Numbered from the stretch's first letter, positions 1,106-16,106 are shown. The stretch: 33,767 bases of DNA from Sphaerochaetaceae bacterium (GCA_041676265.1 JBAYSE010000001.1:1-33767); one strand, 5' to 3'. Notes: generated by a model not told the origin, from the letters alone. Program-made: numbers and translations.

Positions 1106-1302
1106 TTCTCCTTACAAAAGAGGACTCAATTTAACTTAAATTTGATTCAACTGACTGTTGCTAGTGTCTAGCCATGTACGCATTTCCCCCTCTCTTTAAG
1201 CATTCCTCTTTAATTTAGCTCTGAAATTAGCGGCCTAAAGACGAGCTTGATCTTTAACTCCTTCGTAAAAGAATCCTTTGAACGTACAGCCCCGTTTTCT
1301 CA

Positions 1303-1330
1303 TTGATAGATTAGCAATAATATGCATAAT
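1303..1330 (+). promoter_or_regulatory. putative sigma70-type promoter of the DUF362 operon
   Basis: TTGATA (1303-1308), 16-nt spacer, CATAAT (1325-1330), about 58 nt upstream of ATG 1389. It overlaps the direct repeat ATATGCATAA at 1320-1329 and 1340-1349. Confidence 0.4.
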
Positions 1331-1388
1331 GAATTATATATATGCATAACATAGCAATTTCGCTATAAATCTGCTTTAAGGAGTTTGT

Positions 1389-2567
1389 ATGAACAAAGCA
1401 CAGGTTTCAATCCGAAAAACTCATGCACAAAACTATCAAAAAGGGCTGGCGAGGGATCTACAAAAAACACTTGATGATATCGGGGCTCTAGAATATTTAC
1501 GTAGCAAAGGAAACCGAATTCTAATCAAACCAAATATTGCCAGTCCTGAGGCGATTTATAGCACGAGTCCTGCAGTTCTGTTTGTTCTAACTAAGATTTT
1601 AGTAGATGAGGGATTCTCCGTTTCGATTGGCGAGAATCCTTCGATCCCTACTGATGCTGATAGAGCCTATCGTGATTATGGTTTATATGAAATTGCAGAA
1701 GAAGCCGGTGCTGAGGTTTTGGATTTTCGTCGGGGGCCTCATGTTGAGGTCGATGTGCCTGGTGGAAAGCTTTTTCCCAAAATAACTGTAAGTAAATTCG
1801 TATTGGATGCAGATGCTGTAATTAGTTTAGCAACCATGAAATCGGCAAATATTGTGACTGCAACTTTGGCGGTTAAGAATATGAAAGGTTGTATTCCTTC
1901 TCATTACAAAAGAAAATTTCATTGTGAAGGTCTTAATGATGGAATATGTGATTTGATGAAAGTGGTGAAACCTGATTTGGCTCTCATTGATTGCACCTTT
2001 GGCAAAGACATGACGAGTAAAAGTTGTTTCCCCGTTGGTCTGCTGATTGCAAGTACCGATGTTTTAGCTGCAGATTCAATCTGTGCCCGAATCATGGGAT
2101 ACAATCCCTATGAAATTGAGCATTTACGTCAAGTCAGTGAAGCAGGCCTTGGAAAGTTGGATTTGAGTGACATAGAAGTTAGAGGAGAAAAATTAGAGGA
2201 TCATATTGCTCGATATCCTTTCTCCAAACCGATGGACCCGATCAAGATTGCTGAACAGAGTGGAGGCAATCTCAAAATAATTCAAGGAAATCCATGTAGT
2301 GTTTGTCTGAATGAGCTGGGTACGGTATTGCATCTATTCCAGCATCGTATTGCGGAATTAGACGATGTAACCATTCTCGTAGGACCTAATGCAGTTGCAG
2401 ATACTGTTAATTCGGATGATAGTGTAGTTATTGGGTTTGGCAATTGTGTTTCACAGGGGAAGTGTACACACCATATTGCAGGCTGCCCTCCTACAGATTA
2501 TCGAGCAGCTGAAACCGGGTCTCTTATAGATGTATTTCACACTATTCTTGGCGACAAGGAGGCTTGA
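1389..2567 (+). CDS. DUF362 domain-containing protein (function unknown, Cys-rich C-terminus)
   Basis: 392 aa. The N-terminal pattern RILIKPNIASPE...STSPAVLFVLTKILVDEGFSVSIGENPS matches my memory of DUF362. C-terminal cysteines are GNPCSVCLNELG and GNCVSQGKCTHHIAGCPP. AAGGAG lies 5 nt upstream of the ATG. Confidence 0.7.
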   Translation: MNKAQVSIRKTHAQNYQKGLARDLQKTLDDIGALEYLRSKGNRILIKPNIASPEAIYSTSPAVLFVLTKILVDEGFSVSIGENPSIPTDADRAYRDYGLYEIAEEAGAEVLDFRRGPHVEVDVPGGKLFPKITVSKFVLDADAVISLATMKSANIVTATLAVKNMKGCIPSHYKRKFHCEGLNDGICDLMKVVKPDLALIDCTFGKDMTSKSCFPVGLLIASTDVLAADSICARIMGYNPYEIEHLRQVSEAGLGKLDLSDIEVRGEKLEDHIARYPFSKPMDPIKIAEQSGGNLKIIQGNPCSVCLNELGTVLHLFQHRIAELDDVTILVGPNAVADTVNSDDSVVIGFGNCVSQGKCTHHIAGCPPTDYRAAETGSLIDVFHTILGDKEA

Positions 2568-2594
2568 AGCAAACATTAGGGAGGCAGCCAAAAA

Positions 2595-2717
2595 ATGGAT
2601 ACGGCTCTTTTGGTTAGGGAAGATGGGGGTACTCGTTTTGGATGCACTGCCACCGAAGAGATAATGGAGGAGTGTAAACGCAGATTATCTATAGATAATC
2701 AGGTGCAAATAATATGA
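2595..2717 (+). CDS. small ORF, 40 aa, translationally coupled to the HAD gene (hypothetical)
   Basis: Not in the supplied ORF track because it is too short. ATG 2595 is preceded by AGGGAGG (2578-2584, 10-nt spacer). It encodes MDTALLVREDGGTRFGCTATEEIMEECKRRLSIDNQVQII. Its TGA (2715-2717) overlaps ATG 2714 of the next gene as ATGA. Confidence 0.35.
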   Translation: MDTALLVREDGGTRFGCTATEEIMEECKRRLSIDNQVQII

Positions 2718-3559
2718 ATCAGAGTAATATCGATGTTTCGATAGAGCCAAGTGAAATTAAAGCTGTTGTCTTTGATATGGATGGAACTCTTCTGAAGAGT
2801 GATAATACTTTATCCGAACGAACGATCAAAGTTGTTGGAGCTCTTCGAAAAACCGGGAGGAAGATATTTCTTGCTACGGGGCGTAGTTATGACGCTGTAC
2901 ACCCTTTTTTGGAAGCTCTTGCAATTAGAACTCCAATAGTGTGCTTCAATGGTGCCGCAGTAGTGGATGCATTAACAGGACATTCAATTTTTTCGCATTT
3001 CCTTCAAGAGAGTATTGCTCGATTTCTTATCAATCTTGCGAAGATAAATAATGTCTACTACCAAGCTTATAACCGTGAAGGGAAACTTATATATGAACGT
3101 ATCTGCGAAGAATCTAAGTTTTATGAAAAACATTCTGGGATTCAGGGGAGTACATACGATTTTAATGATGAGTCAGCCTTGCAAGTTTACAAAATAGTAT
3201 ATATCGGTGAGTACGATGATTTAAAAATACTGGCAGATGAAGTACAATCCAAGTTTACCATCCATGATATCTACTCTGTCTTTTCAATGCCGTACTTTTT
3301 TGAAGTAATGAACCCGATGGCCGGTAAATTGGCTGCTTTAAAGGAAGCTCTTTCTTCAGAAAAATTGGATTCTAGTGAAGTTATGATATTTGGTGATGGG
3401 CAAAACGATTTGGAGATGTTGCAATGGGCACATGTGGGCGTTGCCATGGAGAATGGATCAAAGGAATTATTTAATGCAGTTCCTCGCAAAACCATTGCTT
3501 CCAATAACGATGATGGTGTTGCCCGCTATCTGGAAGATTTTTTCAAACTTGAACTTTAA
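2714..3559 (+). CDS. Cof-type HAD-IIB family hydrolase (sugar-phosphate phosphatase-like)
   Basis: 281 aa. HAD motif I is VVFDMDGTLL and motif IV is FGDGQNDLEMLQWA. The length and cap region fit Cof/YidA-like phosphatases. Confidence 0.9.
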   Translation: MNQSNIDVSIEPSEIKAVVFDMDGTLLKSDNTLSERTIKVVGALRKTGRKIFLATGRSYDAVHPFLEALAIRTPIVCFNGAAVVDALTGHSIFSHFLQESIARFLINLAKINNVYYQAYNREGKLIYERICEESKFYEKHSGIQGSTYDFNDESALQVYKIVYIGEYDDLKILADEVQSKFTIHDIYSVFSMPYFFEVMNPMAGKLAALKEALSSEKLDSSEVMIFGDGQNDLEMLQWAHVGVAMENGSKELFNAVPRKTIASNNDDGVARYLEDFFKLEL

Positions 3560-3609
3560 AGCAAGGACTGTTATAGACAATTTAAGGTAAAAATGATCAT
3601 ACGGAAGTG

Positions 3610-3634
3610 CCTACACATTCGTAGGGTCATTTTT
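3610..3634. terminator. weak stem-loop plus T-run between convergent HAD and DeoR genes
   Basis: CCTAC (3610-3614) pairs with GTAGG (3621-3625) around a 6-nt loop, followed by GTCATTTTT. The stem is short and the T-run is displaced. Confidence 0.25.
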
Positions 3635-3667
3635 AGTTTACTGATTTATTTTACCAACCAAAAATTT

Positions 3668-4486
3668 TTATTTCAATTTTTTGGCTATGAGAACTTCAAT
3701 ACCAAGAGTCTCCAAACGTTCCTTTATCTGACTAGGAATATTCTCATCTGTTATGAGGGTTGATATATTGGTGAGCTCAGAAAATGAATAGAGCGCAAAT
3801 TTTTGTATTTTTGAGGAATCTACCAGCAGAACCACTTTATTGGCAGATGCAATCATTTCCCTTTTGAGCATAGCCTCAATGCTGTAAGGGGTCATTATCC
3901 CTTTCTCAATAGATAATGCAGCGGTGCCAAGGAAAAGAGTATCCACATTATAATGCTTTATCATATGCAAAGCATCATATCCCATTATGCTTAGTGTCCC
4001 GGAATTTAAATCCCCACCTAATACAATGGTATGGATATCGGGTCGGTTGACAAGTTCATTGGCAATACGAAGGCAGTTTGTGATAATAGTCAGGTCTTGT
4101 TGTTTTTCAAGTTGTCTAATCATTGATAGGGTCGTTGATCCAGAGTCTACCATTATGGTACGGCATCCTCTAACCATATGGGCTGCCAGCTTTCCAATCT
4201 GTTGTTTTTTGTCAAAATTTTTGATAGTAGGGATATCAGCTTCAGCTCTTAATTGAATCCTGGTATCAGCATTTGAATAGCCTTTATCATAATCAAAGAC
4301 TGATGAGTCCTTGTATAAAATTCCGCCTCGTGTTCTTGTTACCAGATTTTCATCGCTAAGCTTAATGAAATCTCTGCGCGCCGTATCCTTGGAGCATCCC
4401 GTTAATTGGATGGCCTCTTCATAGGAAAGGCTACCATGTCTTTTGACTGCAAACATGATTGTTTCAAGGCGCTTTTCAATTAGCAT
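3668..4486 (-). CDS. DeoR/GlpR family transcriptional regulator
   Basis: 272 aa. The N-terminal DeoR-type HTH is HGSLSYEEAIQLTGCSKDTARRDFIKLSDENLVTRTRGG. The C-terminal sugar-phosphate-sensor-type domain is MVDSGSTTL...LFLGTAA. GAGGA lies 8 nt upstream of the ATG. Confidence 0.9.
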   Translation of the reverse strand: MLIEKRLETIMFAVKRHGSLSYEEAIQLTGCSKDTARRDFIKLSDENLVTRTRGGILYKDSSVFDYDKGYSNADTRIQLRAEADIPTIKNFDKKQQIGKLAAHMVRGCRTIMVDSGSTTLSMIRQLEKQQDLTIITNCLRIANELVNRPDIHTIVLGGDLNSGTLSIMGYDALHMIKHYNVDTLFLGTAALSIEKGIMTPYSIEAMLKREMIASANKVVLLVDSSKIQKFALYSFSELTNISTLITDENIPSQIKERLETLGIEVLIAKKLK

Positions 4487-4748
4487 TAGTGTATCCTCAA
4501 CTTAATTTCAATGCATTATATAGCTTAATAGCAAATAAATCAAATAGGCGGGGATACGCCTCCTTTCTGAGCTCTCGGAGGATATTGGAGTTTTATTTTG
4601 TTTGCTTATAAGGCTTCCGTCTTACCTGAATATAGAATCCCCTCTCTCAAAAACATCCTGATTTATACTCTTCATCCGGTGTTTGATAATCCAAAACTTA
4701 GATTTAATATATCTGTTTAACAGTAAAATAATTAAGAACACGTAAAAT

Positions 4749-4758
4749 AGTGCAAAAT
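4749..4758 (+). promoter_or_regulatory. AGTGCAAAAT motif copy 1 (candidate operator, deoR / ABC divergent region)
   Basis: The context AAAATAGTGCAAAATAAAG shares the 12-mer TAGTGCAAAATA with the copy at 9415-9426. Confidence 0.35.
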
Positions 4759-4893
4759 AAAGCTTGACTGATGCAATTATGATGATATGATTAATTAGAC
4801 GAAAGCAATAAAACATAAATTCCCTAATCGTAAAATTAATTCAACTGTATATGTAGAAAGTAAAAAGTGTTAGTTAAGGATAAAACTTAAAAG

Positions 4894-4914
4894 AGTGCAA
4901 AATGTGCAAAAAAA
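4894..4914 (+). promoter_or_regulatory. AGTGCAAAAT motif copy 2 followed directly by the half-copy GTGCAAAAAAA
   Basis: AAAAGAGTGCAAAATGTGCAAAAAAAGT lies about 170 nt upstream of the binding-protein ATG. Confidence 0.35.
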
Positions 4915-5021
4915 GTAAAAGGGGATACATAAAAAGCCGTTTGATTTTGAAATCCAAAGTATTGTTCAGTGCTATAGGTAACTATTTTTTACAAATTTGA
5001 ATGATTTGGTGGTGGTGAGAA

Positions 5022-5042
5022 ATATGTCCATTGTGGACATAT
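5022..5042 (+). promoter_or_regulatory. perfect 9-3-9 palindrome just upstream of the ABC operon RBS (operator or 5'-UTR hairpin)
   Basis: ATATGTCCA-TTG-TGGACATAT ends 22 nt before ATG 5065. A weak candidate promoter, TTGAAT (4997-5002), 17-nt spacer, AAATAT (5020-5025), would overlap it. Confidence 0.45.
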
Positions 5043-5064
5043 AAATTATAAAGGGAGGAGTATT

Positions 5065-6132
5065 ATGAAAAAGAAGGCATTGCTGTTATGTGTGATAATT
5101 CTAATAGTATCCACACTCAGTGTGTTTGCTGCAGGTCAACGGGATGTCACGGTTAAAAAGGAGGGGAAAACAGTCGTAGGTGTCTCGTTACCTTGGCTAG
5201 GAACCCAAAACTGGGCTGAAGGTAACGATATGTTTAAAACTGAATTGGCTGCAGCAGGTTTTGAACCTATTGTCCAGCAGGCTGATAACAAAGTGCCCAT
5301 CCAGCAGCAACAAATCGAGGCAATGATGAGAAGCGGAGCGGAGATTATTGTAGTCGCACCGATTGATGGTTCCCAGCTAGGCGCAATCTTGGAAGATGCA
5401 GCGGCAGCCGGGGTTAAAGTAATTGCTTATGACCGTCTTCTCGAGAATACAACTGGTATCGATTGTGTAGTCCAGTTCGGAAGCGTTAAGATTGGGGAAC
5501 TCCAAGGACAGGCTCTTTTGAACGGTCTGGCTGAGATGAAAGGCAAAGGCCCTTATAACGTCGAGCTTTTTGGGGGCGGTCCCGCTGATCCGAACGCTCC
5601 TAATTTCTTCAAGGGTGCGATGAAGATTCTGCAACCAAAGATCGATGATGGAACACTCGTAGTTGTGTCTGGGCAGACAAGTTTTACTCAGTGCGCAACG
5701 CTTGACTGGGATAGTTCGAAAGCTATGGCTCGTATGGATACCCTGCTTTCCGGTTTCTATAGCAACAAGGAAATTCACGGTGTTTTGTCCCCTAATGACT
5801 CTATCGCCAGAAATATCATCACTGCATGTGAGAGGGCTGGGCAGAAAATCCCGGCTATTTCCGGTCTTGATGCTGAAAACGAATCAATCAAGTGGGTTTG
5901 GGAAGGTAGACAGTATTCAACCGTTGACAAACCAACCTCTGTGCTGGTAGGCAAAACCATTGAAATCGTCAAGTTGATGGATGCAGGTGAAAAGTTGCCG
6001 GCATTTGACAGCATGGTACATAATGGTAAGAAAGACGTCGGGATTTATGAGCTAACTCCGGTTATTGTCACCAAGGCTAACATAAGAGAAGTATATGCCA
6101 ACGATCCTGGTCGTATGGCAATTCTGAAATAA
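5065..6132 (+). CDS. monosaccharide ABC transporter substrate-binding protein (ChvE/multiple-sugar-binding type)
   Basis: 355 aa. The signal peptide is MKKKALLLCVIILIVSTLSVFAAGQ. It has a periplasmic-binding-protein type I pattern (VGVSLP...QNW, IAYDRL) and precedes GguA/GguB-like partners. GGGAGGAG lies 6 nt upstream of the ATG. Confidence 0.85.
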   Translation: MKKKALLLCVIILIVSTLSVFAAGQRDVTVKKEGKTVVGVSLPWLGTQNWAEGNDMFKTELAAAGFEPIVQQADNKVPIQQQQIEAMMRSGAEIIVVAPIDGSQLGAILEDAAAAGVKVIAYDRLLENTTGIDCVVQFGSVKIGELQGQALLNGLAEMKGKGPYNVELFGGGPADPNAPNFFKGAMKILQPKIDDGTLVVVSGQTSFTQCATLDWDSSKAMARMDTLLSGFYSNKEIHGVLSPNDSIARNIITACERAGQKIPAISGLDAENESIKWVWEGRQYSTVDKPTSVLVGKTIEIVKLMDAGEKLPAFDSMVHNGKKDVGIYELTPVIVTKANIREVYANDPGRMAILK

Positions 6133-6242
6133 GGAACTTTCCGAGTTGGCTGTATTGTCAATTCTTTGCCAATAAGTAGGTGAGATTGTATAATGCAGCC
6201 AGCACGTTTGGCAGAACATCGTCAAATGCTGGGAGAAGAGTT

Positions 6243-6271
6243 ATCTGCAAGATTTTGGATATCTTGCAGAT
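6243..6271 (+). promoter_or_regulatory. intercistronic stem-loop between the binding-protein and ATPase genes
   Basis: ATCTGCAAGAT (6243-6253) pairs with ATCTTGCAGAT (6261-6271): an 11-bp perfect stem with a 7-nt loop and no T-run. This arrangement is typical of 3' stabilisers that raise binding-protein expression over the membrane components. Confidence 0.45.
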
Positions 6272-6316
6272 TCAGTGAAATTTGCAAGAGTATATATTGC
6301 AAGATATAAGGTGCCT

Positions 6317-7909
6317 ATGGAAGATAATAATACAAAATCAAGACAACGTCCTGTTATGCTCCAAATGCAAAATATTACCAAATACTTTCCAGGAGTTTGT
6401 GCTCTGGATGATGTAAATCTAAATGTGTTTCGCGGAGACATTCATTCAATATGTGGCGAAAATGGGGCAGGAAAATCAACATTGATGAATATCCTGTCTG
6501 GAGTGCATCCGCATGGCTCTTATGAGGGAAAAATTATATTTGATGGAAATGAAGTTGTTTTCAAAAACATCAAGGAATCAGAAAAAGTCGGCATTGTGAT
6601 TATCCATCAAGAACTTACTATGATCCCTGAGCTTTCCATTACTGAAAATATTTTCTTAGGAAATGAAGTGGTGAAAAAAGGGCTTATCGACTGGGACACC
6701 GCTAGACGTAACACAGTCGAATTGCTTGCCCGTGTAGGTTTGAACGCCTCTCCAGATACATTGGTAAAGAATTTGGGTGTAGGTCAGCAACAGTTGGTAG
6801 AAATAGCGAAGGCGTTTGCTAAAAACGTAAAATTGTTAATTCTTGATGAACCGACTTCAGCCCTAAACGAAGCGGATACTACAAATTTAATGAAACTCAT
6901 GCTAGAGCTGAAGAGCAAGGATATCACTTGCATCATGATATCGCACAAGTTGAATGATATTGCTAGGATATCAGATGCCGTCACCGTGATTCGTGATGGG
7001 TGTACCGTTGAAACGTACCCTGTTGAAGCAGGTAATGTTGATCAAGATCGTATTATATGTTCCATGGTTGGGCGTCCCTTGGAAAACCGCTACCCTTCTC
7101 ACGAATCCAATATTGGAGAGACTATCTTTGAAGTTTCAAATTGGTGTGTAGAAGATCCTGAGATACCAGGAATGTATGCATGCTATAACAACAACTTCTT
7201 TGTCAGATCTGGAGAGATTGTTGGTTTTGCGGGCCTTATGGGTGCCGGAAGAACCGAATTGATGAAATCGATCTTTGGTCGCACCTATGGGAATTACCTC
7301 GGTGGAACCATAAAAATTAGAGGGAAAGAAGTTCAGATCAAAGACGTTAATACCGCTATTAAACATGGCATCGCCTACATACCTGAGGATCGCAAGGTAT
7401 ATGGTCTCAATTTGCTCGACACTATCCGTAAGACCATAGTTTCAGCAAACCTAGGTTCAATTTTACGTCGACGCTTGCTTGATTTGGATGAAGAATTTCA
7501 GGTAGCTAAAAAGTACTGCAAAATGTTGACCGTTAAAACATCTGGGGTTGATTCAAGAGTTACTACCCTTTCTGGTGGAAATCAACAGAAGGTTGTCGTG
7601 GCTAAATGGATGTTTACAGAGCCTGATATTCTGATTCTAGATGAGCCTACACGGGGAATTGATGTTGGTGCCAAATATGAAATTTATCGCCTTGTGCATA
7701 AGCTTGCAGACCAAGGGAAAGCTATAATATTCGTCTCTTCCGAATTGCCTGAATTACTGGGTATGTCGGACAGAATTTACACGATCTTCGAAGGACATAT
7801 TACAGGGGTACTTAATCGAGAAGATGCCGATCAGGTGAAACTTATGAGAATGATGATAAGTACTTCCACATCGAACTCTGAAACTAAAAATAAAGGAATT
7901 GCTTTATGA
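6317..7909 (+). CDS. sugar ABC transporter ATP-binding protein, duplicated ATPase (GguA/XylG/RbsA type)
   Basis: Walker A is GENGAGKST and GLMGAGRTE, the signature is LSGGNQQK, and Walker B is LLILDEPT and ILILDEPT. The start is ambiguous: the ORF opens at GTG 6275, ATG 6317 (MEDNN...) is the first ATG, and a later Met (MLQMQNITKYF) is also possible. Confidence 0.9.
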   Translation: MEDNNTKSRQRPVMLQMQNITKYFPGVCALDDVNLNVFRGDIHSICGENGAGKSTLMNILSGVHPHGSYEGKIIFDGNEVVFKNIKESEKVGIVIIHQELTMIPELSITENIFLGNEVVKKGLIDWDTARRNTVELLARVGLNASPDTLVKNLGVGQQQLVEIAKAFAKNVKLLILDEPTSALNEADTTNLMKLMLELKSKDITCIMISHKLNDIARISDAVTVIRDGCTVETYPVEAGNVDQDRIICSMVGRPLENRYPSHESNIGETIFEVSNWCVEDPEIPGMYACYNNNFFVRSGEIVGFAGLMGAGRTELMKSIFGRTYGNYLGGTIKIRGKEVQIKDVNTAIKHGIAYIPEDRKVYGLNLLDTIRKTIVSANLGSILRRRLLDLDEEFQVAKKYCKMLTVKTSGVDSRVTTLSGGNQQKVVVAKWMFTEPDILILDEPTRGIDVGAKYEIYRLVHKLADQGKAIIFVSSELPELLGMSDRIYTIFEGHITGVLNREDADQVKLMRMMISTSTSNSETKNKGIAL

Positions 7910-9153
7910 AAACCATTAGGGAAATATTTGGCACTGAAATCCGTCAATACACTATGGTGATTGCATTAACTGTACTTATACTAGTCTTTAATATTGCGAC
8001 TAATGGGAAGGTTGTCACCCCTGCAAATTTTCAAAATCTGATCTCTGGAAACGCCTATGTCTTGATTTTAGCGATCGGCATGGTGATGGTAATCGTCATT
8101 GGGCAGATTGATTTGTCTGTTGGATCGGTAGCTGGATTTTCAGGAATGATATTAGCTCTAACTGCGCGAAATTTTAATTTGCCGACGTGGGTTGCCGTAA
8201 TCATTGGTCTTAGTGTCGGTGTTTTGATTGGAGCATGGCAGGGTTTTTGGCTGTCAAAATTCAATATTCCTGGATTTATAACAACATTAGGTGGATGGAT
8301 GATATTCCGTGGTGGTGTTATTTGGATTTCAGGATCCATATCTGTACCAGTTCCAGAAGGGCTTAAGTATATTGGCGCCGGTTATCTACCAGAATGGGGT
8401 CCAGCATTCACAGGTTTGAATAATTCAACATTGTTACTTGGATTATTGGCAATTGGAGCATTTGCTTGGTCAAAAATTTGGAAACGCAACCATACAGCTA
8501 AATTGTACGGCATTAAAGATGCCCTCTGGCCGGTTATAGTTCGAATAGTACTTATAAGTGTTGTTATCGGGTACCTGACGTGGCTTTTTGGTTCAGGCCG
8601 TACCGGTACATCTTTCCCCGTCCCTGGCCTTATACTCGTTGTCTTGGTAATCATTTATCACACAATAACCCAACGAACAACATTTGGCCGCCATATATAC
8701 GCAGTTGGTGGAAACAAGCGGTCCGCTGAATTATCGGGTGTGAATGTAAAGCGAACATATTTCCTCACGATGTTGAATATGTCTTTTTTAGCTGCTTTAG
8801 CGGGAATCATGTTTGTAGGCAGGTCAACGGCCGCGGGACCCTCTGATGGGACAGGATGGGAATTGGATGCAATTGCGTCAGTCTTTATCGGTGGTGCGGC
8901 AGTTTCCGGTGGTGTTGGTACTGTCCTGAATACGATTGTTGGTGGTTTGATGATAGCGGTCCTTAACAATGGACTCATGCTTATGGGAGTTGGAGCGGAC
9001 CAGACTCAGGTCATTAAAGGGTTGGTTCTTTTAGCTGCAGTTGTGTTTGATGTGTACAACAAGGAACATGGTCATGCTTCTATTTTTAGACGCTTGTTGC
9101 CGAAAAAGGAATCGGAAAAAGAAGATAGTCAACAAATTGCCAGTAGTTCCTAA
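7906..9153 (+). CDS. sugar ABC transporter permease (GguB/XylH/RbsC family)
   Basis: 415 aa with about 10 hydrophobic segments and the conserved segment FGRHIYAVGGNKRSAELSGVNV. Its ATG overlaps the ATPase stop as ATGA. Confidence 0.9.
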   Translation: MKTIREIFGTEIRQYTMVIALTVLILVFNIATNGKVVTPANFQNLISGNAYVLILAIGMVMVIVIGQIDLSVGSVAGFSGMILALTARNFNLPTWVAVIIGLSVGVLIGAWQGFWLSKFNIPGFITTLGGWMIFRGGVIWISGSISVPVPEGLKYIGAGYLPEWGPAFTGLNNSTLLLGLLAIGAFAWSKIWKRNHTAKLYGIKDALWPVIVRIVLISVVIGYLTWLFGSGRTGTSFPVPGLILVVLVIIYHTITQRTTFGRHIYAVGGNKRSAELSGVNVKRTYFLTMLNMSFLAALAGIMFVGRSTAAGPSDGTGWELDAIASVFIGGAAVSGGVGTVLNTIVGGLMIAVLNNGLMLMGVGADQTQVIKGLVLLAAVVFDVYNKEHGHASIFRRLLPKKESEKEDSQQIASSS

Positions 9154-9343
9154 TAATACTCTAGCTCTCACATCGCACTAGATTGTGGTAATTATCTTGG
9201 CTGTGCGTGTTGCGGTTTGTATTGCCTATTTCTCTGCGTTAGCCGGCGACTTACGGGAAGAGTTCATAGCCAGAACCAGCTAGGTATTTTCAGGCTTATA
9301 TATCATCTTTCTTTGATTCCAGTAAGCAATCAAAAATCAAACG

Positions 9344-9358
9344 TTTTTTGGGGGGGGG
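9344..9358 (+). repeat. homopolymer tract T6G9
   Basis: TTTTTTGGGGGGGGG. The G run spans 9350-9358, in the intergenic region about 80 nt upstream of the GRE promoter. Confidence 0.9.
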
Positions 9359-9415
9359 CATGTATATGAAAGGGTTCAAAATATGAATTCATAAAAATGC
9401 AAAACAACTTAAATT

Positions 9416-9425
9416 AGTGCAAAAT
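9416..9425 (+). promoter_or_regulatory. AGTGCAAAAT motif copy 3 (candidate operator abutting the GRE promoter)
   Basis: AAATTAGTGCAAAATAGTGT lies 15 nt upstream of the -35 box. A degenerate copy, ATGCAAAAC, is at 9397-9405. Confidence 0.35.
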
Positions 9426-9439
9426 AGTGTTATATATAA

Positions 9440-9467
9440 TTGAATTTAATTGGAAATATGTTACAAT
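9440..9467 (+). promoter_or_regulatory. sigma70-type promoter with extended -10 for the GRE operon
   Basis: TTGAAT (9440-9445), 16-nt spacer, TGtTACAAT (9459-9467), about 60 nt upstream of ATG 9529. A perfect TATAAT at 9435-9440 is an alternative -10 with a poorer -35. Confidence 0.55.
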
Positions 9468-9528
9468 GACCTAGGAATTGGGAAAATAATTTATAATTTG
9501 TCGGATTACATATTTAGGAGAATACAAG

Positions 9529-11814
9529 ATGAACAAAAGACTTGATTTCCTTAAGAAACAGTTATTCAGCGATTTTTTCAAAAAGAAGGATTGGTGGGGA
9601 GATGATTTGTCGATTTTCGATGATAATCCTGACTTGGTTACTGAGCCAATTATATATAGAAAAGCTGTTGCTTTTGAAAAAGTATGCAAAGAGATGCCCC
9701 TTGATTTAAAACCTCAGGAGCTCATCGTAGGTGTTCCCACAATGTCATCCGTAGGTTTTGGTCATACTTTTCCCAAGTATGAGACTGACGAAGAAGCTGA
9801 TAAATTCGAAAAACTTTCCTTGAATAGAAAATCAGTTTGGGGACACCATATGCCCTATTATCCCAAAATCTTGCAGATTGGAATTGATGGCGTGATACAA
9901 GAAGTAAAGGCCGCGCGGGATGCTTTGGCTGGCTCAGATCTAAAAAAAGATGATTTTTATAGGTCGGTTCTCTATACACTGGAATCGGCTAAACTTGTTC
10001 CCCAACGATATGTAACGTTTCTCGAGAATGAAATTAAGGATGAAGCAAATCCGGAAAGAAAGCAAGAATTAGAGCAAATTATCGATATATGTAAAAAAGT
10101 CCCGGCGGGACCTGCGGAAAGCTTTCAGGAAGCACTCCAGAGTGTTTGGTTCATACATCTGATTCTCCATAGTACGCTTTCTTATACCCCTCTTGGCAGA
10201 GTGGATCAGTATTTATGGCCCTATTATAAAGCTGATATTGATTCAGGCGCTATAACCAAAGAATATGCTAGAGAATTGCTTGGATCCTTTTTTATTAAAT
10301 TTAATGAGAGAACTCAATTTTTACAGGAGCACATGGAGAATCACCTTACAGACTATGACTGGTCTCAAGGTGGTGGCAAAAATGAATCTGCTGCGCACTT
10401 CAATATGGAAAATGATGCAGATTATACATATGGGCAGTCTGCTAATCACTGGCTCCAAAGTGCAACAGTCGGTGGATATGGCCCTGATGGTAAAGATGCG
10501 ACCAATGAATTGAGCGAAATGATTCTTGAGGTGATCAATTATCTTGAGTTGATTTCGCCTATGCTCACAGCTCGAGTTCATTCTGAATCTCCAGAAAGTT
10601 ATCTCACGGTAATTGCGGAAGAACTTACTAAGGGTGGAGCCCAACCAACCATATTCAACGATGAGGTAATACTTAAAGGGATGATTGAACGACTCAAGAT
10701 TCCCAAGGAAGATGCACTCGATTATTCATCCGATGGATGTTGGGAAGTTCTTGTCTATGGAAAAACTGAATATAATTATGGCCACATTGAAGTTCTTCCT
10801 GCAATGGAGGCTCTCATAAATAATGGAAAATCCTTGGTAACAGGCCATAAATTAGGAATTGATATTGGGGATGGCATCAAAGAGCTTGATACCTTTGACG
10901 CGTTCTTCAAAGCTTATATGGACCAGATAAAATACAGGGTCGATAGCGCTTTACGGAATAAGCTTGAATATTATGACTATGTCCATCAGATTGCACCTGA
11001 GCCATTTTTATCAGCCTTTGTTCCTGATTGCATCAGCAAAGGTTTGGATCTAACGAACAAGGGCGCCCGATACAGAATGTATGCTCTTTTTCCAACAGGA
11101 TTGTCACATGCTATAGACTCTTTGAATGCTGTGCGGGATGTTGTGTATGAGAAGCAAATGGTTGATTTGCCTACTTTCATCGATGCCGTCAAGAAGAATT
11201 GGGAAGGATACGAGGAGCTACGCCAGTATTGTTTTAACAAGACTCCCAAATATGGTAATGATACGGAGAAAGGCGATGACCTAATGGTGAGATTCTTGGA
11301 TGATTTCTGTAAATATACCGACTACTGGAATAGCCAGATTGACTGGATGCACATCACTGCAGGAGTCTCAACGTTCGAAAACTTCCCCCGTTTCGGGAAT
11401 AATGCATGGGCTTCTTTCGATGGACGCTTTGCCAGAGAAACTGTTTCAAGTAATTACTCTCCTTCTTTTGGACAAGATAAAAATGGGCCGACTGCAGTTG
11501 TCCTATCTTCAATAAAATTTGATCTTTCACGATTGGACAACGGATGTCCCATTGATATGCGTATAAGTTTTAACAAAGGAACCAAAGAGGAGAATGCCAG
11601 TCTACTGAAGAATTTCATAAAAGGGTTCATTCAAGTGGGCGGTAATATCGTTACCATTACGAGGGTTGATTTAGAAACTTTGAGGAAAGCACAGAAAGAA
11701 CCCGAGAAATACCTCTCTCTTAGAGTAAGATTGGGTGGATTAACAGTGTATTTCGTCCAGCTGGTCAAGAAACAGCAGGATGAATATATGCGTCGTACAC
11801 AACATGCAATGTAA
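9529..11814 (+). CDS. glycyl radical enzyme, PFL2/eliminase-like, substrate unknown
   Basis: 761 aa. The C-terminal glycyl-radical motif LRVRLGGLTVYF (Gly737) aligns with RVxG[YF]xxxF, 24 residues from the end. The thiyl loop is SSDGCWEVLV (Cys404, Glu406). AGGAG lies 8 nt upstream of the ATG, and an activase gene is immediately downstream. Confidence 0.9.
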   Translation: MNKRLDFLKKQLFSDFFKKKDWWGDDLSIFDDNPDLVTEPIIYRKAVAFEKVCKEMPLDLKPQELIVGVPTMSSVGFGHTFPKYETDEEADKFEKLSLNRKSVWGHHMPYYPKILQIGIDGVIQEVKAARDALAGSDLKKDDFYRSVLYTLESAKLVPQRYVTFLENEIKDEANPERKQELEQIIDICKKVPAGPAESFQEALQSVWFIHLILHSTLSYTPLGRVDQYLWPYYKADIDSGAITKEYARELLGSFFIKFNERTQFLQEHMENHLTDYDWSQGGGKNESAAHFNMENDADYTYGQSANHWLQSATVGGYGPDGKDATNELSEMILEVINYLELISPMLTARVHSESPESYLTVIAEELTKGGAQPTIFNDEVILKGMIERLKIPKEDALDYSSDGCWEVLVYGKTEYNYGHIEVLPAMEALINNGKSLVTGHKLGIDIGDGIKELDTFDAFFKAYMDQIKYRVDSALRNKLEYYDYVHQIAPEPFLSAFVPDCISKGLDLTNKGARYRMYALFPTGLSHAIDSLNAVRDVVYEKQMVDLPTFIDAVKKNWEGYEELRQYCFNKTPKYGNDTEKGDDLMVRFLDDFCKYTDYWNSQIDWMHITAGVSTFENFPRFGNNAWASFDGRFARETVSSNYSPSFGQDKNGPTAVVLSSIKFDLSRLDNGCPIDMRISFNKGTKEENASLLKNFIKGFIQVGGNIVTITRVDLETLRKAQKEPEKYLSLRVRLGGLTVYFVQLVKKQQDEYMRRTQHAM

Positions 11815-11837
11815 GTCTTCAGGAAAGGAAAAATTAA

Positions 11838-12758
11838 GTGACTAAACCCGATCTTGCGTTGAAAGGAATAGTATTTGATTTTCAACGATTCAGTACTCAT
11901 GATGGTCCTGGTATTCGTAGTATGGTTTTTTTAAAGGGATGCCCATTGCATTGTCCTTGGTGTGCGAACCCCGAATCCCAGAAGCTTGAGCCCCAGTTGG
12001 GGTTTTTTAAGAATAAATGCAGCGGTTGCAATGCATGTACCAATGTCTGCCCACAAGGTGAATATTTTCTGGAGCATGGGGACATTGATTGGGAAACTTG
12101 CATCAGTTGCTTCAAATGTGTAGATGTCTGCGTGTATGATGCACGGAAAGCTTACGGACAGTATCTATCAGTTGAAGAGGTGCTTAAAGAATTACTCAAA
12201 GATAAGCCATTTTTTAAAACTTCAGGTGGGGGGATAACTATAAGTGGAGGTGATGCCACTTTGCAGCATGAATTCACGTATAATATACTTCTGGCGTGTA
12301 GAGAGCAGAATGTGCATACAGCGGTTGAAACAAGTGGGTATGCCTCGAAAAAGATATGTAAAAAAATCGCTGAGCAAACTGATCTCTTGCTCTATGATAT
12401 CAAACATATGGATCCTGTCATTCACCAGAATACGATAGGTGTCTCTAATGAGATAATTCTTGAGAATGCGATTATGTCTGCTGAAATTGCTCCTGAAATG
12501 ATAATTAGATTCCCTTTGATTCCCGGCTTTAATGATACTGCTAAAAACATGACTGAAATGGGAGCATTTATCTCTAAGAAGCTTCCCAAGGTCCAACAAG
12601 TTGACATTCTGCCTTACCATTCAATGGGTGAGTCAAAGTGTATTGCTATCGGGAAAGAATATGGGTATCCCCAAGGAACGGATGTTACCAAAGAGAAAGA
12701 ACATGAAGCGCGACAGATTCTTGAGGAATTTGGATTGAGAGTTAGTATCGGCGGTTGA
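11838..12758 (+). CDS. glycyl-radical enzyme activating protein (radical SAM, two auxiliary ferredoxin-type clusters)
   Basis: 306 aa with a GTG start. The SAM-cluster motif is CPLHCPWC. Two CX2CX2CX3C motifs are present (CSGCNACTNVC, CISCFKCVDVC). The GGGITISGGD glycine-rich motif is also present, and the N-terminus FSTHDGPGIRS is typical of GRE activases. Confidence 0.92.
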   Translation: MTKPDLALKGIVFDFQRFSTHDGPGIRSMVFLKGCPLHCPWCANPESQKLEPQLGFFKNKCSGCNACTNVCPQGEYFLEHGDIDWETCISCFKCVDVCVYDARKAYGQYLSVEEVLKELLKDKPFFKTSGGGITISGGDATLQHEFTYNILLACREQNVHTAVETSGYASKKICKKIAEQTDLLLYDIKHMDPVIHQNTIGVSNEIILENAIMSAEIAPEMIIRFPLIPGFNDTAKNMTEMGAFISKKLPKVQQVDILPYHSMGESKCIAIGKEYGYPQGTDVTKEKEHEARQILEEFGLRVSIGG

Positions 12759-13071
12759 TTATCAGGATGGAGACGTCACAATATTTGCGCCATGCTCTTC
12801 ATTAGCTGCCACACAAACTGCTTTAGAGGTAGTGAGGATTTAACACTTTTTGCAGACTAGACTTTGCTTCGCAGTTCTTTTTTCATGACAACCCGCAACA
12901 CCCTTTCACCGTCCTGTTATTACCCATACAGGGCAAACAAAAAAAAGATATTTTTCGCGTTTGTAGGTAGCTGCTCTACTGAACATTTATTAAATTTTCA
13001 TTAGGTAAACTGCGTAACTATGGTTACACAGGGTAATGAATTAGAGTGTAGGGGGAAGTAGAGGGGTTGAG

Positions 13072-15186
13072 ATGAAAACTTTAAAACAATTAGTAGTATT
13101 GGGGTTAGTATTACTAATACTTTTGGGCCTTTTCATTAGTTGTAATGATGAACTTAGATTGGAAGAAATATGTAGTATTAGTGTGGAGGGCGTAGTTGTC
13201 GTTGGTGAGACTCTGACAGTTGAAGTGATGCCAAGCAGAGCACCAGTTTCTTATCAGTGGCTGAGAAGTAATAGTGCTGATGGCACATATGCCAATATTT
13301 CAGGGGCAACCAATAAGACTTACAAACTTGTTGAAGCCGACAAAGGGAAATGGATCAAAGTTGAAGTAAAAGGGACCGGGAACTTTACCGGAACTGAGTC
13401 AAAAATAGTTGGTCCGGTGACTCAGATTATTCAGATTATTAATGAGAGAAGTAGTAGAGCCTATGATACCATCCAAGAAGCTGTTGCTGAGGCAATTGCC
13501 GGCGATACTATTTTAGTTGGAACAGGGACTTATGTAGAAGAAGGACAAATTGTAATTGCTAAGAATCTAACCATTAAGGGAAATAGCAAAGAAGGCACAA
13601 TTATCAAGCCTAAACAGGACACCGGCAGTGATGGCGATGATCGTGGATGGATATTAGTAGAAGCGAATGTAGAATTTAATTTAAGTAATGTTACACTAGA
13701 TGGTGAAGGAAAGGCTATTTACCAGGCTGTTCGCTCTTATGGCACCGGTAGCGTAGATGACTCTATCATTAAAAATATAAAATGGACCGGTAACTATGGT
13801 GCAGGGCTTGTATTTATGGGCACTTCAAGTGATTTTACCGTAAGCAATACCCTCTTTGAAAATATTGATCGCAATGGAATTGTTGTTTATGGGACAGGGA
13901 TAACCGGCGGAACAATTGATAACAACCTATTTATTGGCAGAAATTCTGAGGCTGATCTTGAATATGGTATAGAAATTAGTGAAGGTGCAACCGATGTTGA
14001 AGTTAAGAATAATAAACTCAGAGGTTATGGCGGAGGTAATGATGATTATTCCTCTGCAGCCATATCGATTGTTAGCCGCCATGACACAACAGCTACAACT
14101 GTAACAATAACTAATAATGTCGTAAAAGAAAATTATATTGGTATAGCTATTGGCAATGTGTATGATAAAAAAATACCGCAAGTTACAGTTACTGATAATG
14201 AGTTTGAAAACAACACATATCATATTTTTGATGACCGACTTAACTGGGACAGTGATAATGGCGAATTATTGAATTCTATTATGGTAGATAATGAATTTGC
14301 TCCCGAAAGTGGAATAGGTGATGGAGTAATTAGAGCAACTAAAGAAGGTGACATACTCAATCTCAATCAAAACAGAAGAAAAATTTACAGTTCCATCCAA
14401 GAAGCTGTTAATAAGGCATATGCTTATGATGATATTTCAGTTAGTGCCGGAACGTATGAAGAAAATGTAACAATTGCAACCAACGGCTTGACCCTCAAAG
14501 GACCGAATGCCGGCATTCCGTACAACGGCGAAAGGGTTGATGAGGCAATTGTAGTAGGCAGCTTTAACTTAACAGGAGACAATATCACGATTGAGGGATT
14601 TACAATTGAGCATGGTGAATCCACACTGAATAATAAACGTGGTATCTATATTAATTCTATTGCTACTAAAAATAGTAAGATTGCCAATAATATTCTCGAT
14701 GGAGGCGATAAAGCTACAGACGGAATATTTGTTTCAGGTGAAGGAACGCTTATCGAAGGGAACAAAATTTTCGGAGGTTCTGGTAGTGGAAATGGTTTTT
14801 GGACTCAACCATCCGGAGACCTAACTGTTGAAGGCAATTCAGTAGAAGGTTATGGAAGTAGTATGTACTTCGACTCGGGCTCAACCGGTGATTTTGAAAT
14901 AATAATTAAAGATAACATTTTCAGCCCAAGTGAGGGGCATGGTATAAGTATTGAAGGTAATCCAAACTTTGACGGGTACACATTCAGTATAACAGGAAAC
15001 ACTTTTGAAGACACAGGTGCCACTAGTATAAGGGACCTTCATAGTGCCACGACAGCAAACCGAGATGGGAACTGGCGTGCTTCTATACTGGTTAATAATA
15101 CTATCCCAGAAGGGCATGTGTGGTACGATGATGGCCAAACACCACCACTCTGGCTTCTGGCAGAAAATCGGGATGATAATCCCTAA
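13072..15186 (+). CDS. putative surface lipoprotein with an Ig-like domain and two right-handed beta-helix (pectin-lyase-fold) modules
   Basis: 704 aa. The signal peptide with a loose lipobox is LLILLGLFISC. The Ig-like repeat is VSYQWLRSN...ISGATNKTYKLVEADKGKWIKVEVKG. PbH1-like turns recur (NNKLRG, ITNNVV, VTDNEF, IANNIL). The cap motif is duplicated (YDTIQEAV...GTGTYVEE and YSSIQEAV...SAGTYEEN). Confidence 0.75.
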   Translation: MKTLKQLVVLGLVLLILLGLFISCNDELRLEEICSISVEGVVVVGETLTVEVMPSRAPVSYQWLRSNSADGTYANISGATNKTYKLVEADKGKWIKVEVKGTGNFTGTESKIVGPVTQIIQIINERSSRAYDTIQEAVAEAIAGDTILVGTGTYVEEGQIVIAKNLTIKGNSKEGTIIKPKQDTGSDGDDRGWILVEANVEFNLSNVTLDGEGKAIYQAVRSYGTGSVDDSIIKNIKWTGNYGAGLVFMGTSSDFTVSNTLFENIDRNGIVVYGTGITGGTIDNNLFIGRNSEADLEYGIEISEGATDVEVKNNKLRGYGGGNDDYSSAAISIVSRHDTTATTVTITNNVVKENYIGIAIGNVYDKKIPQVTVTDNEFENNTYHIFDDRLNWDSDNGELLNSIMVDNEFAPESGIGDGVIRATKEGDILNLNQNRRKIYSSIQEAVNKAYAYDDISVSAGTYEENVTIATNGLTLKGPNAGIPYNGERVDEAIVVGSFNLTGDNITIEGFTIEHGESTLNNKRGIYINSIATKNSKIANNILDGGDKATDGIFVSGEGTLIEGNKIFGGSGSGNGFWTQPSGDLTVEGNSVEGYGSSMYFDSGSTGDFEIIIKDNIFSPSEGHGISIEGNPNFDGYTFSITGNTFEDTGATSIRDLHSATTANRDGNWRASILVNNTIPEGHVWYDDGQTPPLWLLAENRDDNP

Positions 15187-15301
15187 TAGGAGAAAACAAC
15201 CTCAACTACAAAGTATCTGCCAGCTTTACGCATCTGCTTGTTAGATTTGTCATAAGTACAGCTATTTATGGATTATTGGGCTTTCTAAATACCTTGTAAA
15301 G

Positions 15302-15416
15302 AAGAAAATTTGCTGACAATTAATAGAAATATTAATTTAAATGACATATGCTTGTAAGTATTTATATCTTTAATTATTTTATATACATCATTTTATAGAT
15401 TTCAGCAAATTTTCTT
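15302..15416. repeat. 15-bp perfect inverted repeat flanking an 85-bp AT-rich spacer
   Basis: AAGAAAATTTGCTGA (15302-15316) is the exact reverse complement of TCAGCAAATTTTCTT (15402-15416). Confidence 0.85.
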
Positions 15417-15436
15417 TAATATTTTAACTCATAGTA

Positions 15437-15465
15437 TTGACATAAGTGTGTAGTTTCTGTATATT
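15437..15465 (+). promoter_or_regulatory. near-consensus sigma70 promoter
   Basis: TTGACA (15437-15442), 17-nt spacer, TATATT (15460-15465), about 50 nt upstream of the 177-aa ORF. Confidence 0.65.
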
Positions 15466-15516
15466 ACACACGAGCTTCACTATTAGTGGAATGAATTCAA
15501 ATTTTGCAGAGTAAAT

Positions 15517-16050
15517 GTGATGAAAAAAGTGCTAATTATTTTAACAGCCATACTAATCACCGGAGTCCTGTTTGCCGTCGATATTGTCGATAGTACCGAC
15601 TTTTATATGTCAACTAAAATTGAAGAGAAAGGGGCAGTAAAGATTGGAGATAAGGGAAAAACATCAAATTCCGTGTCCACTTTTAATAGTATTGATTCAG
15701 TAGGAACCAGTGATGATCCTATTTTGTTTGATGATGACCGGTTAGAAGCAGAATTCACTGTTTACACCATGATAAACAAACAAGGCTCCTACTCTGTTGG
15801 TGTAAAGGCTTCTCCACTGAGTGCTACCGGCGTTAGCACTAAAATTAACTACACCGTGGCTTATGGTACATCGAGCACCGAAACTATTAACAGCGATAAT
15901 AAAACCTTTACAATTCTGTCGGGAACCAACTCCGGAGGGCTAATATTCCCCAAACAGGACTTTAAAATTACCCTAGACAATACAACCTACACAAATGCTT
16001 CGGCCGGTGAATATAGTACTTCTTGGACTATCGAGCTCACGAGCAATTAA
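15517..16050 (+). CDS. small secreted Ser/Thr-rich protein, hypothetical
   Basis: 177 aa, starting at GTG 15517 or ATG 15520. The signal peptide is MKKVLIILTAILITGVLFAVD. The C-terminal all-beta-looking tail SAGEYSTSWTIELTSN loosely resembles small fimbrial or DUF4402-type subunits, which is a guess. A strong terminator follows. Confidence 0.65.
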   Translation: MMKKVLIILTAILITGVLFAVDIVDSTDFYMSTKIEEKGAVKIGDKGKTSNSVSTFNSIDSVGTSDDPILFDDDRLEAEFTVYTMINKQGSYSVGVKASPLSATGVSTKINYTVAYGTSSTETINSDNKTFTILSGTNSGGLIFPKQDFKITLDNTTYTNASAGEYSTSWTIELTSN

Positions 16051-16073: not shown

Positions 16074-16106
16074 GCTGTTGGCTACAAGCCGGCAGCCGTT
16101 TTTTTT
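16074..16106 (+). terminator. Rho-independent terminator
   Basis: GCTGTTGGCT (16074-16083) pairs with AGCCGGCAGC (16087-16096): a 10-bp stem including two G-U pairs, with a 3-nt loop. CG and then T8 (16099-16106) follow. Confidence 0.8.

Follow-up and report, generated by a model that had tools for sequence, protein, structure and literature searches.

The GRE1-AE1 locus

The stretch of DNA analysed here in its entirety, referred to as the window, comprises 33,767 nucleotides from a Sphaerochaetaceae bacterium (GCA_041676265.1, JBAYSE010000001.1:1-33767) and encodes a glycyl radical enzyme (GRE), GRE1, together with its activating enzyme, AE1, downstream of the genes for an ATP-binding cassette (ABC) sugar importer and a divergently oriented DeoR-family regulator (Table 1). 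GREs are oxygen-sensitive radical enzymes that carry out anaerobic reactions beyond the reach of ordinary enzymes, and newly assigned clades have revealed pathways in gut and sediment, such as those for choline, hydroxyproline, isethionate and anhydro-sugars. The original prediction, made from the DNA sequence of the window, regarded GRE1 as an orphan attached to a sugar importer and as a candidate for new chemistry. GRE1 appears instead to represent a large clade of PFL2-like enzymes, here termed the DGCWE clade after its Cys loop, whose link to the importer is conserved across phyla, and it may act on a free imported carbohydrate.

Table 1. Features of the window and of related loci (coordinates in nucleotides; positions refer to the window unless a related locus is named)
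Feature	Position	Strand	Remarks
DUF362 protein, possible accessory	1389..2567	+	Pfam DUF362 1e-39
Cof-type HAD-IIB sugar phosphatase, possible accessory	2714..3559	+	TIGR00099 189 bits, cut-off 137
DeoR-family regulator	3668..4486	-	Divergent from importer genes; Pfam HTH_DeoR and DeoRC
ChvE-like periplasmic sugar-binding protein, CUT2 ABC importer	5065..6132	+	NCBIfam ChvE 296 bits, below 460
GguA-like importer ATPase	6275..7909	+	NCBIfam GguA 777 bits, cut-off 810
GguB-like importer permease	7906..9153	+	NCBIfam GguB 425 bits, cut-off 450
Poly-G tract	9350..9358	+	In the 375-nt gap between permease gene and GRE1, ~170 nt before the GRE1 start
Promoter-like site upstream of GRE1	9440..9467	+	Consensus match only, 9/12, TG extension
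GRE1, glycyl radical enzyme	9529..11814	+	761 aa, DGCWE clade; Cys404, Trp405, Glu406, His106, Gly737
AE1, radical-SAM activating enzyme	11838..12758	+	306 aa; CX3CX2C and two CX2CX2CX3C ferredoxin-like motifs
Lipoprotein, 704 aa	13072-15186		Directly after the activase; signal MKTLKQLVVLGLVLLILLGLFISC, Ig-like region, two beta-helix (NosD-like) regions
Hexokinase, eukaryote-type	22516-23862	-	Pfam Hexokinase_1 and Hexokinase_2; outside the island, ~10 kb from GRE1
~610-aa ROK-like family members	L091 16373-18208; L094 10001-11845; also L092, L093, L013, L012, L023		After PflD-like GRE/activase pairs

Fold, catalytic residues and activase of GRE1

Translation of GRE1 yields the motifs DGCWEV (Cys404, Trp405, Glu406) and RVRLGGLTVYF (Gly737), and Pfam recognises both a PFL-like domain (PF02901, E 1.3e-131) and a Gly_radical domain (PF01228, 3e-13). 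An AlphaFold2 (AF2) model built from 101 homologs has a pLDDT of 91.4 and the ten-stranded barrel of PFL-like enzymes; in Foldseek it superimposes on more than 40 solved GREs of the PFL2 type with TM scores of 0.80-0.86 at 21-27% identity, the top matches being glycerol dehydratase (GD), 1,2-propanediol dehydratase (PD) and CutC (TM about 0.85; E 1e-50 for GD and PD). In a HMMER alignment to solved GREs, C404 and E406 fall on the GCVE of CutC and PD, and R734-L735-G736-G737-L738 lies opposite R-V-A-G-Y of PD, which identifies Gly737 as the homologous radical site. The same placement is obtained in a MAFFT alignment with E. coli PflD and YbiW, Parabacteroides HypD and Klebsiella CutC. Across these comparisons G737 is aligned with the radical glycine of PD, PflD, YbiW, HypD and CutC, and C404, invariant in the 101 homologs, with the catalytic cysteine of CutC, PD, GD, IseG, HpsG, IslA, PflD, YbiW and HypD. 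The description of GRE1 as a 761-aa PFL2-type GRE with Cys404, Glu406 and Gly737 was therefore correct, and its Cys and Gly motifs are not misaligned with those of characterised enzymes.

The GCWE segment is aligned with GCVE, GCIE and GCTE, so that GRE1 carries a Cys-x-Glu (CXE) arrangement on the Cys loop, with the glutamate on the catalytic base and no Cys-Cys pair; the definition of the CXE motif follows a recent review (PMC13450708). From this arrangement the original prediction had deduced kinship with the GRE eliminases. While the assignment to the CXE-type, non-PFL enzymes stands, the term eliminase does not follow from the motif alone, because GRE isomerases carry CXE too. Between Cys and Glu, the alignable GREs have Val (CutC, PD, GD, Archaeoglobus fulgidus PFL2 and PflD), Ile (YbiW, HypD and IslA) or Thr (IseG and HpsG). 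None of the characterised GREs aligned has Trp there, as had been expected; the small aliphatic residue (GCVE) ascribed to them is only an approximate description. Likewise, the view that GRE1 is shorter than the 780-850 aa of its characterised counterparts is only partly right, since E. coli PflD has 765 aa.

Gly105 and His106 are also invariant in the 101 homologs. G105-H106 is aligned with the GH of PD (5i2a and 9rco), and the His106 column contains His in the C-O-cleaving enzymes PD, HypD, PflD and YbiW but Asp in the C-N lyase CutC. It has been proposed that the histidine of the GH motif serves as the acid for the leaving hydroxyl (PMC13450708). In addition, GRE1 possesses a set of clade-specific polar residues (H107, N306, H307, Q310, E617, N618, H419 and E421), which are assumed to line the active site and would suit a polyhydroxylated ligand.

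AE1, a radical S-adenosylmethionine (SAM) enzyme, contains CPLHCPWC at residue 35, CSGCNACTNVC at 61 and CISCFKCVDVC at 88, in agreement with the anticipated CX3CX2C and two CX2CX2CX3C motifs, and passes the TIGR02494 threshold (338 bits, cut-off 174). An activase gene directly follows the GRE gene in 84% of the clade loci. GRE1 is an intact, CXE-type, non-PFL GRE with an activase of its own, and a radical is expected to form in it.

The DGCWE clade

GRE1 is far from isolated. The DGCWE or GCWE motif occurs in 119 of 120 database homologs, and a pattern scan using one genome per species recovered at least 568 confirmed DGCWE stretches from Spirochaetota, Bacillota, Planctomycetota, Armatimonadota, Chloroflexota and other phyla; clade members also occur in human-gut metagenomes. 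Clustering at 50% identity leaves about 30 GCWE clusters among 1747 GRE clusters with an E value of 1e-30 or better. The clade shares several signatures, namely SVWGH, a two-residue deletion at H-ST(L), N(H)WLQN, DGCWE, GTFE and R(V/M/L)GG[L/F/W]. Neither the status of orphan nor the notion of Trp405 as a peculiarity of GRE1 can therefore be maintained, the latter being a clade-wide signature. No relative of GRE1 above 32% identity was found on plasmids, and none of the closest-clade loci examined comes from a cultured carrier. More distant members occur in cultured bacteria, among them Clostridium sp. E02, Diplocloster agilis, D. modestus, Faecalicatena fissicatena, Clostridium tyrobutyricum FAM25158 and Butyricicoccus faecihominis.

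On the other hand, the absence of a match to any characterised GRE family is upheld. GRE1 shares 21-30% identity with characterised GREs and lies below every NCBIfam cut-off. Its best NCBIfam match is the PFL2-3 subfamily TIGR01774 (399 bits, cut-off 678), and every equivalog scores about a third or less of its cut-off: CutC 325/1050, HypD 346/1100, HpsG 335/1000, HpfG 333/1000, IAD 232/1100, HPAD 180/1150 and PFL 68/994 (bits/cut-off). Identity within the clade falls to 33%, a depth like that between GRE families differing in function, and for this reason the clade may not be monofunctional. Judged from its sequence, GRE1 is a member of an uncharacterised PFL2-like clade that is both large and deep, on which neither a literature search nor the 2026 review (PMC13450708) yielded any information.

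The same divergence could mean that GRE1 is catalytically dead or performs a different radical chemistry. Its Gly loop reads R-L-G-G-L rather than R-V-A-G-Y and departs from the RVxG[FWY] pattern, Trp405 on the Cys loop is found in no other GRE aligned, and the TIGR01774 score is well under the cut-off. Nevertheless, both deviations, including the non-canonical Gly loop, are conserved throughout the clade in several phyla; Cys, Glu, His and both glycines are invariant or nearly so; the cognate activase is kept adjacent; and the model is confident throughout. Taken together, these features indicate purifying selection on a working enzyme, and a dead or chemically unrelated GRE1 appears exceedingly improbable.

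Linkage to a conserved sugar importer

The binding protein encoded upstream of GRE1 has as its best PDB match the pyranose binder ChvE (3urm, 6e-68). The gene callers applied to the same DNA place the start of the ATPase at about 6317 (530 aa). Related loci are designated by L numbers; the gene contexts of those retrieved by the genome scan rest on in-house open reading frame (ORF) calling and clustering. The window binding protein is 82%, 79%, 83% and 74% identical to the copies that lie beside GRE1 in L014, L023, L092 and L091, respectively, of which L014 is an Oscillospiraceae metagenome-assembled genome (MAG) and L023 a Christensenella MAG. The ATPase is 72-75% identical to the copies of L014 and L092, and the permease 72-78% to those of L014, L091 and L092. 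GRE1 itself, with 62-64% identity in L014, L023, L091 and L092, is less conserved than the importer. In the clade as a whole, parts of CUT2 sugar ABC importers are found at most 10 kb away in 43% of loci (63 well-sampled loci). The attachment of GRE1 to a sugar importer, as originally proposed, is real and conserved across phyla.

It could be argued that the importer is a mere neighbour and that GRE1 acts on a small metabolite, such as 1,2-propanediol or a short diol derived from hydroxyacetone or lactaldehyde. PD and GD come closest in fold and motifs, a Fe-alcohol dehydrogenase (Fe-ADH) recurs nearby, and GRE1 begins only after a gap of 375 nt behind the permease gene, in which it has a promoter-like site of its own. 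This explanation is very unlikely given the retention of the importer/GRE1 pairing across phyla with the importer as the more conserved partner, the frequency of sugar ABC parts in clade loci, the lack of microcompartment and PduP/PduL-type genes, and the many clade-specific polar residues on the segments presumed to form the active site.

Base composition also sets the unit apart. The genes from 335 to 16050 have a GC content at third codon positions (GC3) of 0.29-0.45, compared with 0.48-0.57 in the flanking genes, and a terminator-like hairpin lies at 16074-16096. The nearest relatives of the importer belong to Bacillota MAGs, unlike the host, which is regarded as a Sphaerochaetaceae-like spirochaete because its release factor 1 (RF1) shares 82-89% identity with proteins of Sphaerochaetaceae and Spirochaetales. 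An importer better conserved than GRE1, residing within a low-GC island, indicates the horizontal transfer of a working unit; GRE1-AE1 lies in this island of ~16 kb as part of a horizontally moving module with the importer and the DeoR gene.

A second GRE, a putative kinase and an aldolase in related loci

In the closest part of the clade (62-66% identity), GRE1-AE1 is followed directly by a second GRE (GRE2), its activase (AE2) and a 611-aa protein in L006, L013, L091, L092 and L093; in L012 and L023 the same genes lie within about 2 kb of GRE1-AE1, which brings the total to seven of the nine closest loci. An aldolase was found in three of the loci of the closest relatives. GRE2 is a PflD-like enzyme of roughly 790 aa (PDB 8yjo 667 bits; PRK09983 780-791 bits), 43% identical to E. 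coli PflD and with canonical GCVE and RVAGY. Tandem or nearby pairs of DGCWE-type and PflD-like GREs with their activases are an arrangement absent from the 2026 review (PMC13450708).

Neither Pfam nor a PDB sequence search gave a match for the 611-aa protein, and its more than 1200 homologs are all labelled hypothetical. Its AF2 model (pLDDT 88) displays a ROK-type hexokinase core (2qm1, E 1e-10, TM 0.72 on the target); at the N terminus the family has a further domain. From this model and its position after PflD-like GRE/activase pairs, the family looks like the missing kinase of a non-phosphotransferase-system version of "anhydroglycolysis". In that pathway, the E. coli GRE isomerases YbiW and PflD convert 1,5-anhydroglucitol-6-phosphate and 1,5-anhydromannitol-6-phosphate into 1-deoxy-fructose-6-phosphate for aldol cleavage (Ma et al. 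2024, cited in PMC13450708). The clusters thereby expose, besides the DGCWE clade, a second unannotated family, a widespread ROK-like kinase. In Vallitalea longa, a cluster that mirrors the E. coli ybiW-fsaA and pflD-fsaB loci contains genes for Fe-ADH, a PflD-like GRE, its activase, the kinase-like protein, a TAL_FSA aldolase and an ABC importer, and has no GRE1. By analogy, GRE2, AE2, kinase and aldolase would form a self-sufficient ABC/kinase version of anhydroglycolysis, to which GRE1-AE1 and its importer would be an add-on. The kinase and aldolase near GRE1 in close relatives stand with GRE2 and are absent from the window; both the window and L014 have GRE1 and importer without the GRE2/kinase module.

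One interpretation of these clusters is that GRE1 is a non-orthologous analogue of YbiW, acting on one 6-phosphorylated epimer of a 1,5-anhydro-hexitol, e.g., 1,5-anhydroglucitol-6-phosphate, while GRE2 takes the manno epimer; both would deliver 1-deoxy-fructose-6-phosphate to the aldolase, and in the window the phosphate would come from a general hexokinase. The use of two C2 epimers, as by ybiW and pflD in E. coli, would require two GRE/activase pairs but only a single importer, ROK-like kinase and aldolase, which is the content of the canonical cluster. The DeoR and Cof-type HAD genes recall the position of ybiV beside ybiW, and a hexokinase is encoded within the window. However, GRE1 does not have the basic residues common to PflD, YbiW and GRE2, the clusters with GRE1 only (window and L014) contain no kinase, identity to YbiW and PflD is limited to 27-28% with 293 bits against a cut-off of 1109 for the PflD model NF007437 (PRK09983), and the hexokinase is a housekeeping-like gene outside the island. 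We consider such an analogue unlikely.

More heterogeneous contexts are observed further away. L091 carries, further downstream, a deoC equivalog (235 bits, cut-off 117), DUF4432, Fe-ADH and DUF362 genes. Distant clade members (33-45% identity) are located near genes for GntR, aldehyde dehydrogenase, Zn- and Fe-alcohol dehydrogenases, split transketolase, SDR and GFO_IDH_MocA proteins, as well as beside aldehyde:ferredoxin oxidoreductase, ALS-like thiamine pyrophosphate (TPP) enzyme and IolB/IolC-like genes. Such contexts fit carbohydrate or polyol catabolism via aldehydes and may reflect other substrates. In L009 (8794-15380), whose GRE is 53% identical to GRE1, the genes on either side of the GRE/activase pair encode a family-2 glycosyltransferase and a 692-aa hydrolase/glycosyltransferase-like protein in place of sugar-catabolic enzymes, and this locus stands outside the general pattern.

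These neighbourhoods raise the alternative that GRE1 resembles glycerol dehydratase and is a 1,2-dehydratase of a longer polyol or sugar, such as a pentitol, hexitol, aldonate or cyclitol. The resulting 2-deoxy-aldose or deoxy-keto sugar would then undergo phosphorylation and cleavage by an aldolase of the DERA type, or oxidation and reduction by aldehyde and alcohol dehydrogenases. GD and PD are the best structural matches and have the same His/Glu pair; deoC, DUF4432 and Fe-ADH genes follow the GRE genes in L091; and clade loci contain aldehyde dehydrogenase in 29%, Zn-alcohol dehydrogenase in 27% and split transketolase in about 22% of cases, with IolB/IolC-like, GFO_IDH_MocA and ALS-like TPP enzymes beside the more distant members. 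Dehydration in place of oxidation would, moreover, solve the redox problem of polyol fermentation. Against this, the binding protein is ChvE-like and hence of the aldopyranose-binding type, no obvious role is left for the adjacent PflD-like GRE2 and the kinase, GRE1 has a different and shorter segment in place of SSGHSIS of PD, and most of the supporting contexts come from members that are only 33-45% identical. A dehydratase of this kind seems rather improbable.

Two narrower candidates were set aside. An inositol or cyclitol substrate was suggested by the GFO_IDH_MocA, ALS-like TPP and IolB-/IolC-like neighbours of members 41-56% identical to GRE1, but the NCBIfam scores are far below cut-off and the genes are absent from the closest clade; a literature search found no paper linking GREs to inositol, and the idea is retained only as a sub-case of the dehydratase. 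Levoglucosan was rejected as well: the best match of the GFO neighbour, levoglucosan dehydrogenase, reaches 190 bits against a cut-off of 650, and no literature link was found.

Other genes and sites in the window

The island contains genes for a thioredoxin, SSB, an uncharacterised 177-aa ORF, DUF362, the Cof-type HAD, DeoR, the importer, GRE1-AE1 and the lipoprotein, and the remainder of the window consists of housekeeping genes. The importer and the DeoR regulator, described initially as the sole functional neighbours of GRE1, are thus both present, but the Cof-type HAD phosphatase and DUF362 have to be added. DeoR-family regulators usually sense sugar phosphates; a DeoR gene lies immediately before GRE1 in L091 and is also found in L010 and L025. 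In L014 and L091, copies of DUF362 that are 43-44% identical border the GRE1 clusters, and weakly related HAD genes occur near GRE1 in L012 and L023. E. coli ybiV, a Cof-type HAD gene adjoining ybiW (L095, 4214-5029), encodes a protein 25% identical to the window HAD. As originally stated, the window has no microcompartment shell gene, aldehyde dehydrogenase, sulfite reductase or P5C reductase; in the Pfam/NCBIfam annotation it also has no second GRE, no aldolase and no kinase beside the GRE1 cluster. Should GRE1 need a phosphorylated substrate, the hexokinase encoded elsewhere in the window could phosphorylate the sugar.

Upstream of GRE1, an AGGAG ribosome-binding site precedes the ATG. The poly-G tract comprises nine residues in the window and in L002 and seven in L001 and L003, and is the sole indel across 21.8 kb of DNA that is 99.6-99.9% identical in the four assemblies. 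Located near the putative GRE1 promoter, the tract could be phase-variable, or its length difference could stem from an assembly error in a homopolymer. A search of the complete window against Rfam matched no family, so that neither the gap preceding the importer nor that preceding GRE1 holds a riboswitch.

The 704-aa lipoprotein was contemplated as an enzyme releasing the substrate and then discarded, as the PDB gave no sequence match, all Pfam matches are sub-threshold, and other loci have no homolog beside GRE1. Elsewhere in the window, the RelA/SpoT gene (29628-31640) has an in-frame TAG at about 30099-30101, beyond which the HD-domain frame runs on (…ARAR*IANECLDIYAPLADRLG…); it could be a pseudogene, a sequencing error or a case of read-through.

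Proposed function of GRE1

We tentatively propose, with somewhat less than even confidence, that GRE1 cleaves a C-O bond of a free, imported, pyranose-like carbohydrate, such as an anhydro-alditol or polyol, in connection with an anhydro-sugar pathway. Following the reaction scheme for CXE enzymes (PMC13450708), the activase would install a radical on Gly737 that moves to Cys404, and the thiyl radical would abstract hydrogen from a carbinol carbon of the unphosphorylated substrate, most likely a 1,5-anhydro-hexitol-type sugar or a close polyol relative. Glu406 would deprotonate the carbinol hydroxyl, giving a ketyl radical, and His106 would protonate the leaving oxygen on the neighbouring carbon. 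The latter could be the ring oxygen, in a ring-opening isomerisation as with YbiW and PflD, or a hydroxyl, in a dehydration. Once hydrogen has been returned to the product radical, the deoxy-keto or deoxy-aldo sugar would proceed to kinase, aldolase and alcohol dehydrogenase steps, which in relatives are encoded next door with the PflD-like GRE2 and not in the window.

Whereas the fold, motifs, clade membership, activase, conserved importer linkage and the tandem arrangement of relatives are shown, the substrate class, phosphorylation state and leaving group are inferred. An unphosphorylated substrate is favoured because GRE1 is accompanied by an importer but no kinase in the window and L014, and because it does not carry the basic residues R311, R608 and K708 (PflD numbering) common to PflD, YbiW and GRE2, the corresponding GRE1 columns being L/H/R/N, Q/K/E and G.

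Several observations weigh against this proposal. The absence of R311, R608 and K708 is weak evidence and only suggestive. The window offers no kinase, aldolase or second GRE beside the cluster to take the product on, and DeoR and the adjacent Cof-type sugar phosphatase hint at a phosphorylated intermediate. The L091 deoC equivalog and the aldehyde and alcohol dehydrogenase neighbours of distant members fit a 2-deoxy-aldose dehydratase at least as well. With 33% identity within the clade, the contexts of distant members may not transfer, and the nearest solved or characterised relative of GRE1 is only ~30% identical.

As for the clade as a whole, it is possible, though far from assured, that DGCWE enzymes constitute a new functional class acting on free carbohydrates delivered by ABC importers. 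Within it, the options are the opening of free 1,5-anhydro-hexitols or the dehydration of alditols to 2-deoxy-aldoses, a reductant-free radical route to deoxy-sugars. If so, this class would extend or feed anhydroglycolysis, and Trp405, the GG of the Gly loop and the invariant Glu617 would be signs of an altered active-site architecture. Activity on free sugars would make these enzymes a third type of GRE that acts on sugars, and would give anaerobes a new way in for unusual sugars from the diet or the host. In either case, the chemistry is less unconstrained than first supposed: the PflD-like GRE, kinase and aldolase of relatives point to anhydro-sugar or polyol metabolism and, together with the tie to the importer, narrow the candidate substrates to a short, purchasable list.

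Comparison with known systems

Among solved enzymes, Archaeoglobus fulgidus PFL2 (2f3o) shares with GRE1 the Asp-Gly-Cys start of the Cys loop (DGCVE versus DGCWE), is of similar length (776 aa) and reaches a similar score (281 bits), but has Val in place of Trp, is archaeal and is 26% identical. To our knowledge, it has no sugar importer context, and its function is debated.

B12-independent glycerol dehydratase (1r8w) and 1,2-propanediol dehydratase (5i2a, 9rco) resemble GRE1 in the Cys-x-Glu arrangement, the GH histidine and an activase with two extra ferredoxin-like clusters. They differ in overall sequence (~26% identity, TIGR01774 below cut-off) and in the SSGHSIS segment of PD, shortened to STLSY in GRE1. 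In contrast to their settings, the importer of the window is of the sugar type, and microcompartment or aldehyde-processing genes are lacking there.

The closest parallels in carbohydrate chemistry are YbiW and PflD, the only sugar-acting GREs named in the June 2026 review, according to which whole clades are still unassigned (PMC13450708). Their activity on anhydro-hexitol-6-phosphates shows that sugar substrates, first believed to be without precedent for GREs, are already documented (PMC13450708). They differ from GRE1 in identity and family score, as indicated above, in having Val or Ile instead of Trp between Cys and Glu and RVAGY instead of RLGGL, and in their reliance on the phosphotransferase system (PTS) rather than on an ABC importer; the window, moreover, has no kinase or aldolase for the subsequent steps. 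Like GRE1, however, they combine a PFL2-like fold, a CXE Cys loop, a His at the GH position and a carbohydrate context, and YbiW shares with it an adjacent Cof-type HAD, ybiV in E. coli and the product of 2714..3559 in the window. GRE1 is, in this comparison, an uncharacterised variant of a well-known kind of enzyme and a strong, testable lead rather than a categorically new system.

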